Source of the DNA: a virus
Taxonomy: Duplodnaviria; Heunggongvirae; Uroviricota; Caudoviricetes
Direction: 5' to 3' (one strand)
DNA length: 10,810 nucleotides
IMG/VR virus record: IMGVR_UViG_2531839446_000011
Span: 1-10,810 of that record
The notes beneath the pieces are model-generated. The model made no database searches. It saw only the letters and a list, made by a program, of their open reading frames with translations, and was not told the origin of the DNA. The position numbers and the translations under genes are program-made. Positions 6,439 through 8,021 of this stretch are shown piece after piece. The first letter of the stretch is position 1. Every line of letters begins with the position of its first letter.

Positions 6439-6708
6439 CTATTTCATCCCGCCAATATTTTCCCACGTCCCGTCAGCACGCAGGATTTGCAGCGGTCTTA
6501 CCACACACTGTATCTGCTTTTTATCTGCATCCAGTATCACCACCTGTGTGATTACCCTGTCCTGCTCTGGAATAATGCCATTCTCATCTGACTCCAGAAT
6601 GTCTGCCGGTCCCAGTCGCAGTTGTGCTGTAAGCGACTGCCCGTTTTCACAGTCATCATGCTTTCCGCAACCGCACAGACTCTGCATAAGCTTTCTCAAA
6701 ATATTCAT
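6439..6708 (-). CDS. small protein (89 aa) paralogous to the C-terminal tip domain of the adjacent side tail fibre; tail-fibre accessory candidate
   Basis: ATG at 6708-6706, with GGAG 6 nt upstream, lies 1 nt after the stf TGA (TGAcATG). The ORF track's 133-aa version starts further upstream, overlapping stf. The protein contains LRLGPADILESDENGIIPEQD ... RPLQILRADGTWENIGG, alignable to the Stf C-terminus. Confidence 0.6.
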   Translation of the reverse strand: MNILRKLMQSLCGCGKHDDCENGQSLTAQLRLGPADILESDENGIIPEQDRVITQVVILDADKKQIQCVVRPLQILRADGTWENIGGMK

Positions 6709-6709
6709 G

Positions 6710-8021
6710 TCATTCTCCACTACTGCCTGTATCACTGCCCACTTCATCCAGTCCCTTAACATCCTGCCATGGCCCGTCACCAAACCTGACCTGCAAATGC
6801 TGAAACAGCCCCTGAACCTGTGTGGCATCTTTGGGGTCAAGAAAGGTCAGTCCGGTGATGAGTGCGCCATCTGTATCCGGGAACCAGCCATTGCTGTTTG
6901 TCTCAATAATGCTCGCCGGCCCCAGACGAAAACGGATTTGTGTCTCCCCCGGGTCGCCCTTTGGTCCCTGAGGTCCGGTTGCCCCCACCGGGCCAGCCGC
7001 ACCTGTTTCTCCTTTCGGTCCCTGTGGGCCTGCCGGACCTGCCGCACCGGTATCTCCCTTTGGACCCTGTGGACCTGCATTTCCCGTCAGACCGGTCTCT
7101 CCCCGCTCTCCCCTGGCGCCTTTCGGCCCCTGCGGGCCTGCCGGACCAGCATCACCTGCCGGTCCCCGCTCACCGGTTGCCCCGACAGGACCGGTGTCGC
7201 CACGCTCTCCTTTATCTCCCTTCGGCCCCTGAGGACCCGCGGGCCCCGGTTCTCCCTTTGGCCCGGGAGGTCCCACCACGGTGGGGATTCGGTTTACGGC
7301 GTCTTCCGCCGCTATCCTGCTTTGTTCCGCTGACTGTGCGCTTTCTGCTGACTCCCGGGCTTTTTCTGCTGCGGTCGTTGCATCCCTGGATGCATTACCG
7401 GCTGCACTTTCTGCCGTCTTTCTTGACAATTCAGCTTCTGCTGCACTTTGTGATGACTCACTGGCTTTTTGAGCGGCCGCAGAAGCCGAGGACGAGGACG
7501 CATCCTCTGACTGCTTTGCTGAGGCTGCACTTTCTGCCGCCTGCCGGGCTGACTCCGATGCCTCCCCTGCTGAAGTGTCAGCATTTGCAGCGCTCTCTTC
7601 TGCCTGACTGGCTGATATACCCGCATTCCTCGCTGACGTCTCCGCCTCTCCGGCATTCTTCTTCGCCTCCTCAGCGTGACGCGCCACCTCTCCACCATCT
7701 GTCAAACGGCGCAGTCGCCCCCGGCCGGGCATCCTCCTCCGTCATGGCACCGAGAAAATCATTCAGCGTACCCGGCTGAGAATCTTCATACACGGTGATG
7801 GTCCCGGCATGTGACGGCGGGAACCCTTCCACCAACAGAATAACGCTGTACTGACCGTACTCAACGTCCATGCTGTAACGCCCGGCTTCATCCGGATTTT
7901 CTGAGGCCAGCGTGTTCACCACCACCGTGGTGCTGTTACGTTTTGCTTTCAGCTGGATTGTGCAGTTCTGTACCGGTTTTCCTGTGCCGTCTTTCAGTAC
8001 ACCTGAAATCTTTACTGCCAT
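6710..8021 (-). pseudogene. stf: side tail fibre protein Stf (collagen-like), interrupted by a +1 frameshift at a C5/G5 run (7717-7721); encoded as ORF pieces 7671..8021 and 6710..7732
   Basis: The 7671..8021 ORF is near-identical to the lambda Stf N-terminus (MAVKISGVLKDGTGKPVQNCTIQLKA ... FPPSHAGTITVYEDSQPGTLNDF). After DARP the frame runs out; the 6710..7732 ORF continues in another frame with GRLRRL ... EVAR, matching lambda DARPEVLRRLELMVEEVAR. Removing one G from the run restores a continuous ~436-aa protein. Confidence 0.75.
6947..7273 (-). repeat. collagen-like Gly-X-Y triplet repeat region (about 36 triplets) within stf
   Basis: Protein residues 154-262 of the 340-aa [40 protein letters not shown] ... 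[11 protein letters not shown]. The GC-rich repetitive DNA also generates long spurious antisense ORFs. Confidence 0.85.

Follow-up and report, generated by a model that had tools for sequence, protein, structure and literature searches.

A free-standing paralogue of the tail fibre C-terminal domain encoded one base downstream of stf

Introduction

Why would a phage keep a second copy of the tip of its tail fibre as a gene of its own, placed directly after the fibre gene? The question is raised by a stretch of 10,810 nucleotides (nt) from a virus of the Caudoviricetes (positions 1 to 10,810 of IMG/VR record IMGVR_UViG_2531839446_000011), here called the window, in which a small open reading frame (ORF) of 89 amino acids (aa) lies on the minus strand immediately downstream of the fibre gene stf. 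The original prediction, made from the sequence alone, held that this small ORF is a paralogue of the C-terminal tip domain of Stf, that it occupies the position of the tail fibre assembly gene tfa of lambda, and that its product could act as a swappable or decoy receptor-binding module or as a templating chaperone. Our analysis upholds the kinship and the position, and indicates that the small protein is made, is strongly constrained, and appears to be neither an exchangeable tip cassette nor an obligatory chaperone. We give about an even chance to a dispensable protein that is translated in coupling with the fibre, trimerises by itself and serves the fibre as a helper or loosely bound partner.

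The resemblance of the small gene to the fibre tip is already published. Mondal et al. (2016; PMC5155283) recognised the fibre C-terminus domain in ORF68 of the Shiga toxin 2 (Stx2) phage VT2-Sakai/Sp5 and proposed a "reservoir" role for it, and GenBank record KU977419 carries the name "alternate tail fiber tip" (atfT). The small protein of the window is 100% identical to the 89-aa core of this post-fibre gene, to the product of the post-stf gene of lambda h434 imm21 (gene 024, from the phage 434 host-range region), which GenBank record OM418627 names "tail fiber assembly chaperone", and to RefSeq WP_001024006.1 ("phage tail fiber C-terminal domain-containing protein"). Together with "gp59" of phi24B, these copies share with the present one the sequence, the junction and the location one base after a collagen-like fibre gene that ends in a PfC domain. 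Their surroundings differ, in that Sp5 and phi24B have the small gene midway along a podoviral tail operon, after an EPclB fibre of 645 aa, whereas here it follows a frameshifted stf of the EPclA type and lies near nleH and nleF. In the phage 434 host-range segment (L201; OM418627, 2730-5210), an identical small ORF comes after an EPclA-type stf and is followed by NleB-like and NleC-like effector genes. No further literature was found under the name atfT or the Pfam family name; the gene is not discussed in the phage 434 genome announcement, and the papers on Phi24B lysogen expression and on the proteomics of enterohaemorrhagic Escherichia coli phages make no mention of it.

A paralogue of the fibre tip domain

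BLASTP aligned the 340-aa Stf ORF with the small ORF at 24 identities in 62 positions (39%), with two one-residue gaps (E=1e-12), pairing Stf residues 267-328 with small-ORF residues 29-88. The Smith-Waterman score of 112 compares with 23.1 +/- 4.2 in 5000 shuffles (z=21.4), none of which scored as high. Both proteins match PF06820 (Phage_fiber_C, the PfC domain) over 64 of its 64 model positions, Stf at E=4.3e-36 and the small protein at E=5.1e-36; the latter match, at 123.3 bits over residues 28-89, exceeds the gathering score of 25 bits. The family is characterised as the C-terminus of long tail fibres, a trait that the adjoining Stf possesses and the small protein does not. In addition, the small protein belongs to phrog_576, which it matches over its whole length (E=8.8e-61, positions 1-89 of 89), and a comparison with NCBIfam gave no match. 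The predicted paralogy is therefore borne out by pairwise alignment and hidden Markov model (HMM) alignment alike, with a similarity far beyond that of shuffled controls, and the small ORF did not turn out to be a known chaperone of the Tfa family.

Judged by sequence, the small ORF is an ancient duplication of the fibre PfC knob, to which a short variable N-terminal segment (MNILRKLMQSLCGCGKHDDCENGQSLT) has been joined. A sequence search of the Protein Data Bank returned no PfC homologue, Stf matching collagen only. AlphaFold2 models of the small protein alone reached a predicted local distance difference test (pLDDT) score of 52.4 from the single sequence and of 54.5 from a 28-row alignment containing both paralogue clades, too low for a fold search; in these low-confidence models a helix is predicted at residues 3-11. 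With the PfC domains of the EPclA and EPclB fibres (Ghosh et al., 2012; PMC3368898) the small protein shares PF06820, 39% identity and an all-beta prediction. Unlike them, it is free-standing, carries a 27-aa N-terminal segment, has neither a collagen region nor the 11-aa acidic tail, and is far more conserved, with a ratio of nonsynonymous to synonymous rates (dN/dS) of 0.037 against 0.22.

Coupling to stf and expression

At the junction GGAGAATGAcATG (minus strand), the stop codon TGA of stf is followed by a single base and then by the ATG of the small ORF, and GGAG stands six bases upstream of this ATG. The ribosome-binding site and the TGAcATG arrangement of the original prediction can thus be read directly in the sequence, and they are conserved: the 13-nt junction is unchanged in 83 of 83 related copies, across which GGAGAATGACATG is also invariant. 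These copies, taken from IMG/VR loci, annotated loci and the window, are mostly close relatives (at least 91% identity). The ribosome-binding site is likewise annotated in the lambda h434 imm21 record (OM418627). The short spacing, the location of the Shine-Dalgarno (SD) sequence in the last codons of the fibre gene and the strict co-inheritance of the two genes (see below) point to translational coupling and to joint action with the fibre, and the small ORF would be translated through termination-reinitiation coupling with the fibre gene. Its annotated lengths vary (89, 102, 129 and 135 aa) because the frame is open for 44 codons upstream, over the 3' end of stf. A run of six adenines at codons 5-6 (about 6691-6696) has gained or lost a base in several alleles (loci L120, L165 and L191) and in Citrobacter rodentium (L086:2973-3000); these indels put the first ATG out of frame, in which case translation could begin at a conserved Met at position 8.

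Detection of its peptides in phi24B indicates that the small protein is made. Two peptides unique to it, ADGTWENIGGMK and VITQVVILDADKK, are listed from purified phi24B virions in the supplement of a cryo-EM and proteomics preprint from 2026 (bioRxiv 10.64898/2026.04.10.717836), whose authors assign them to a "gp59" ORF and to hypothetical fibre-gp59 fusions. The small protein is thus produced as the phage grows lytically, and traces of it accompany the virions through purification. The count column in the accessible part of the peptide table, which is apparently sorted by count, gives 3 for each of the two small-protein peptides and a total of 2267 for the fibre; by rough length scaling, about 300 counts would be expected were the small protein equimolar with the fibre. 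In Sp5, ORF68 is listed among the non-essential late genes and the fibre gene is essential; phage lacking ORF68 retains plaque formation on, and lysogenisation of, K-12 (Mondal et al., 2016; PMC5155283).

Selection and allele variation

The small ORF is intact, at 89 aa, in all 83 copies. Its PfC core (residues 29-89) has a proportion of synonymous differences (pS) of 0.141 and of nonsynonymous differences (pN) of 0.0058, with dN/dS 0.037, compared with pS 0.204, pN 0.064 and dN/dS 0.28 for the N-terminal 28 residues, and pS 0.129, pN 0.031 and dN/dS 0.22 for the fibre's own PfC domain. Variable sites in the small PfC core are distributed 5/2/20 over codon positions 1/2/3, and variation in the fibre PfC is clustered at few positions. 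The codon-position pattern and the dN/dS values together indicate purifying selection at the protein level, stronger on the small PfC core than on the tip of the fibre, and the near-invariance of this core suggests a conserved binding or self-assembly surface. By these measures of nucleotide change, the small ORF is a genuine constrained gene and no relic. The N-terminal alleles of the small protein and the tip alleles of the fibre assort almost freely.

A conserved cysteine knot or metal site in the small protein was considered and rejected: C20 is replaced by R or S and C14 by Y or H in many alleles, and C12 alone is constant. Rare chimeric proteins were also encountered in public assemblies. 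Those of the small-ORF type (P0063, P0065, P0084, P0112 and P0136) have breakpoints at codons ~36-45, between GPA and DILESDENG, and those of the Stf type (P0134, P0137, P0144, P0145, P0220 and P0231) have breakpoints clustered within the fibre PfC; the partners are unrelated genes, namely J, Lom, NleG-like, a helix-turn-helix repressor, tail assembly protein T and an IS66 transposase. These chimeras may mark a hotspot of recombination, deletions at microhomologies or artefacts of assembly where repeats end.

Distribution and linkage to PfC fibres

Of 5426 complete E. coli genomes, 698 carry the small ORF, at 6563 places in all and with a median of 10 per carrier, and 697 carry the fibre PfC segment, at 6117 places. 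Similarly, the small ORF and the fibre PfC each occur in 296 phage records, and the two sets break down identically by organism name; Stx phage records with a PfC fibre essentially all have the small ORF as well. In siphoviral lambdoid phages and prophages the gene pair closes the late operon, and in podoviral Stx phages (Sepvirinae) it stands midway through the tail operon, which suggests that the cassette moves as a unit between two virion types.

The family is essentially confined to E. coli, E. albertii and C. rodentium, as judged by a word-indexed protein search and by an exhaustive HMM search of 1.84 billion representatives, the latter giving 88 matches, mostly fragments. In the word-indexed search, queries of 75-89 aa return only proteins of at most 131 aa, and the 437-aa fibres are missed even by their own PfC. 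The C. rodentium copy was considered as a divergent orthologue and set aside, being a decayed remnant with frameshifts.

Possible functions of the small protein

That PfC is a receptor-binding tip, as the original prediction took it to be, is an unproven premise; experimentally it is a domain for trimerisation and collagen nucleation (Ghosh et al., 2012; PMC3368898). Recombinant EPclA, a Col-PfC fragment and isolated PfC all form trimers in E. coli without the small gene, and PfC re-nucleates the collagen helix after melting, acting as an autonomous trimerisation domain (PMC3368898). The phi24B study argues that the fibre PfC does not bind the BamA receptor. We propose that the small ORF may be the accessory gene of a two-gene PfC fibre cassette, encoded one base past a fibre gene that ends in PfC. 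The duplicated knob would be an all-beta domain of ~64 aa that trimerises and nucleates a collagen triple helix, and the small protein, by analogy with the isolated fibre PfC, would form a homotrimeric knob of its own, which may stabilise or cap the fibre tip, or modulate ligand binding or deployment. The foldon of T4 fibritin, the V domain of Scl2 and the NC1 domain of collagen offer a functional analogy, as small terminal domains that register three chains, with unrelated sequences. We know of no nucleator of the foldon type with a separately encoded free paralogue adjoining it.

A silent reservoir, in which a C-terminal cassette is kept in store and now and then transferred to stf by recombination so as to alter the tip, was suggested in print by Mondal et al. 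(2016; PMC5155283) and is echoed in the atfT annotation of KU977419. It accords with the presence, just past the fibre gene and oriented alike, of a second copy of the tip domain, and one fragment does join collagen repeats to a small-type domain (P0063/L085, between GPA and DILES). This fragment, however, sits at a contig edge with its junction off-register. An invariant stretch of 41 nt from the small-type PfC was used to scan IMG/VR, and in none of the 139 distinct contexts whose reading frame was traced was the small-type domain the in-frame tip of a long fibre, the exceptions being the same fragment and two cases of read-in by frameshift. Between the two PfC coding segments there is no long run of identical DNA for homologous exchange; there is no invertase and there are no flanking inverted repeats, the sole recombinase in the window being a tyrosine integrase. 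A silent cassette, moreover, would retain neither an invariant SD and ATG nor an 89-aa frame with such a low dN/dS, and the phi24B peptides mean that the gene is translated. The reservoir is thus already largely refuted, and we regard it as very unlikely; the swappable tip module is likewise not supported: the survey of related phages for fusion as opposed to separation revealed no long fibre that ends in a small-type PfC. The Mu G segment (S/S'), the P1 C segment and e14 Pin likewise place a second version of a fibre C-terminus beside the fibre gene. Unlike these invertible ends, the small ORF has the same orientation as its fibre gene and its own SD and ATG, with no invertase, no crossover inverted repeats and, in the contexts traced, no fibres that end in it.

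An obligatory tail fibre assembly chaperone of the Tfa type, as annotated for lambda h434 imm21 in OM418627, would suit the small size of the protein and the location of its gene immediately after stf, which is indeed the position of tfa in lambda. Lambda Tfa, Mu U, P2 G and T4 gp38 are likewise small proteins whose genes directly follow a fibre gene and share its expression, and some Tfa proteins remain on the fibre tip. Unlike them, the small protein is homologous to the tip of its own fibre and has no sequence kinship with Tfa, no match to the Tfa, Caudo_TAP or T4 gp38 families being found at E<=1 in Pfam or NCBIfam. By the literature, it also appears not to be required for fibre folding or infectivity: the fibre and its isolated PfC domain trimerise alone (PMC3368898), and Sp5 can dispense with ORF68 but not with its fibre gene (PMC5155283). 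A templating chaperone would therefore not be needed, and we consider an obligatory one highly improbable.

Other possibilities concern where the small protein acts. It may form a second knob, in which the basic N-terminal segment of a conserved homotrimer docks on the acidic C-terminal tail and the distal PfC face of the fibre. This arrangement, which we consider unlikely, would give a modular tip of two polypeptides, with a distal invariant module that recognises a conserved ligand or a docking site on the capsid, and it would explain the trace mass-spectrometry signal by a knob that is easily lost on purification. A metagenomic protein of 565 aa (P0147) has four tandem partial PfC modules with short Gly-X-Y linkers, followed by a collagen region; this protein and another of 938 aa (P0170), both fibre-like and from outside Escherichia, contain four to six tandem modules that match the C-terminal half of PfC, with the consensus …VVVLDADxxxxxGxxGILxVRRADGTWxEI…. 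The modules of P0147 indicate that a single fibre axis can bear several knobs in a stack, and docking at the tip is thereby plausible, not demonstrated. A soluble trimer that acts away from the virion, as a decoy or competitor that is released at lysis or stays intracellular and binds the fibre's ligand or capsid docking site, agrees with the very sub-stoichiometric signal in virion preparations and with fibre tips that point to the capsid in phi24B, with a viable knock-out (PMC5155283), and with a highly conserved PfC core, as would fit the binding of a conserved partner. On reading the sequence, however, no signal peptide or lipobox-type leader is seen, no match was found in the PADLOC defence models, 39% identity to the fibre PfC does not imply a shared ligand, and the close coupling of the small protein's translation to that of the fibre points to the two acting jointly; a free trimer is in our view doubtful. 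A lipoprotein or secreted decoy in particular was rejected on reading, as the motif LCGC is preceded by a short charged segment without a hydrophobic core; in the C. rodentium copy only four residues stand ahead of the Cys motif.

A programmed +1 frameshift at the stf stop, with GAA UGA C read as GAA GAC, would instead yield a minor Stf-Asp-small-ORF fusion with tandem knobs. The small ORF does lie in the +1 frame relative to stf, UGA-C is a weak stop, GGAG stands just upstream in a superficially prfB-like arrangement, and tandem PfC-like modules exist in P0147; the phi24B authors included "Fusion_6159_FS1/FS2" in their search database and labelled one row "Spike or just gp59?". Mondal et al. 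(PMC5155283) nevertheless found no frameshift signal, and no junction peptide containing MNILR occurs among the proteomics rows listed in the available part of the phi24B data. The SD and ATG of the small ORF itself suffice to explain its translation. In prfB, the P-site codon must re-pair in the +1 frame and the SD stands three bases upstream. In GGA GAA UGA C, a shift from GAA to AAU would restore pairing at one of three positions, and by the prfB rules tRNA-Glu would thus be unable to re-pair; GGAG, which lies partly on the P-site codon, would be misplaced as an SD. We therefore take this frameshift to be extremely improbable.

Several points weigh against the coupled helper or loosely bound fibre partner that we favour. 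The mass-spectrometry signal is tiny, and the small protein could be a co-purifying contaminant. The knock-out of ORF68 in Sp5 has no reported phenotype on K-12. The trimer is extrapolated from a fibre PfC that is only 39% identical, the AlphaFold2 models are poor (pLDDT 52-55), and the phi24B study reports the same for this domain. The free assortment of their alleles means that the small protein and the fibre show no allele-specific pairing.

Genomic setting

In reading direction, the minus strand carries J, lom, stf (as two ORFs), the small ORF, a terminator-like hairpin, nleH and nleF (Table 1). This order fits a vegetative lambda-type map across att, which we take to be J-lom-stf-(tfa)-b region-att-int-xis, and nleH and nleF, directly past the terminator after the small ORF, hold the position of the phage "b region". 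The hairpin has a fold energy of -23.2 kcal/mol (z=-3.5) and was missed by a consensus terminator scan; it closes the late operon ahead of nleH. In the gap between nleH and nleF (5407-5441) there is a perfect 16-nt palindrome (ATCCATAAATATTATT / AATAATATTTATGGAT) with a spacer of 3 nt. No tRNA gene was found in the window.

Aligned to intact relatives, in which stf is one unbroken 437-aa gene, the stf of the window is broken in two at about 7692-7716 by a cluster of four single-base indels, three of them deletions and the fourth an insertion. What the original prediction called Stf is hence only the 3' 340-aa ORF of a split gene, and it is this ORF that carries the PfC end. The fibre is of the EPclA type, with the architecture PfN, coiled coil, collagen and PfC, and frameshifted copies of this type are also listed by Ghosh et al. 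(2012; PMC3368898). Because its partner is frameshifted, the small ORF of this window probably resides in a defective tail module. The broken stf and J reflect either a decaying prophage or sequencing errors of the indel type.

Table 1. Positions of the small ORF, stf and the neighbouring features in the window
Feature	Position	Strand	Remarks
Small ORF, 89 aa	6439-6708	minus	ATG at 6708, stop TAG 6439-6441; free-standing PfC-domain protein
Small-protein PfC (PF06820) core, residues 28-89	6442-6627	minus	Pfam E=5.1e-36; nearly invariant
Small-protein N-terminal 27 residues	6628-6708	minus	variable, mosaic among copies
stf stop TGA	6710-6712	minus	then single spacer base 6709
Shine-Dalgarno GGAG of small ORF	6715-6718	minus	inside last stf codons
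Fibre PfC (PF06820) domain	6746-6937	minus	Stf-ORF residues 266-329; paralogue of small-ORF core
stf 3' ORF, 340 aa	6710-7732	minus	coiled-coil region, collagen repeats, PfC domain, 11-aa acidic tail
stf 5' ORF, 116 aa, phage_tail_N	7671-8021	minus	Pfam PF08400 E=1.9e-57
lom	8086-8685	minus	intact
J	8755-10783	minus	at least three ORFs; indels near 9716, 10012/10018 and 10540 (reference E2348/69)
Intrinsic-terminator-like hairpin	6395-6428	minus	CCGGAGU...GCUCCGG then UUUUU; ~20 nt past small-ORF stop
nleH	5449-6339	minus	OspG-type kinase domain; intact type III effector gene
nleF	4814-5383	minus	ends LQCG; matches NleF caspase-inhibitor family; intact type III effector gene
Integrase, tyrosine type	2948-4030	plus	antisense to late genes
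xis-like DUF4224 ORF	2745-2948	plus	
823-aa protein	within 215-4030	plus	C-terminal 170 aa = Rv2179c-like 3'-5' exoribonuclease domain

Implications

As the small gene is dispensable in the laboratory and its resemblance to the fibre tip is already in print, the finding is modest as a discovery. The gene is nevertheless very common, is present also in the classic phage 434, and has so far been tested by a single knock-out on K-12. At present, one and the same gene goes under four database names (tail fiber protein, alternate tail fiber tip, assembly chaperone and C-terminal domain-containing protein), and knowing the function of its product would stop the spread of wrong function names. If the proposed partnership is true, the tip protein would have arisen, unusually, from the trimerisation domain of the very fibre that it serves. 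In addition, knowing its function would clarify the purpose of the collagen-like lateral fibres in phages that carry Stx or effector genes, a question that the phi24B study lists as open.

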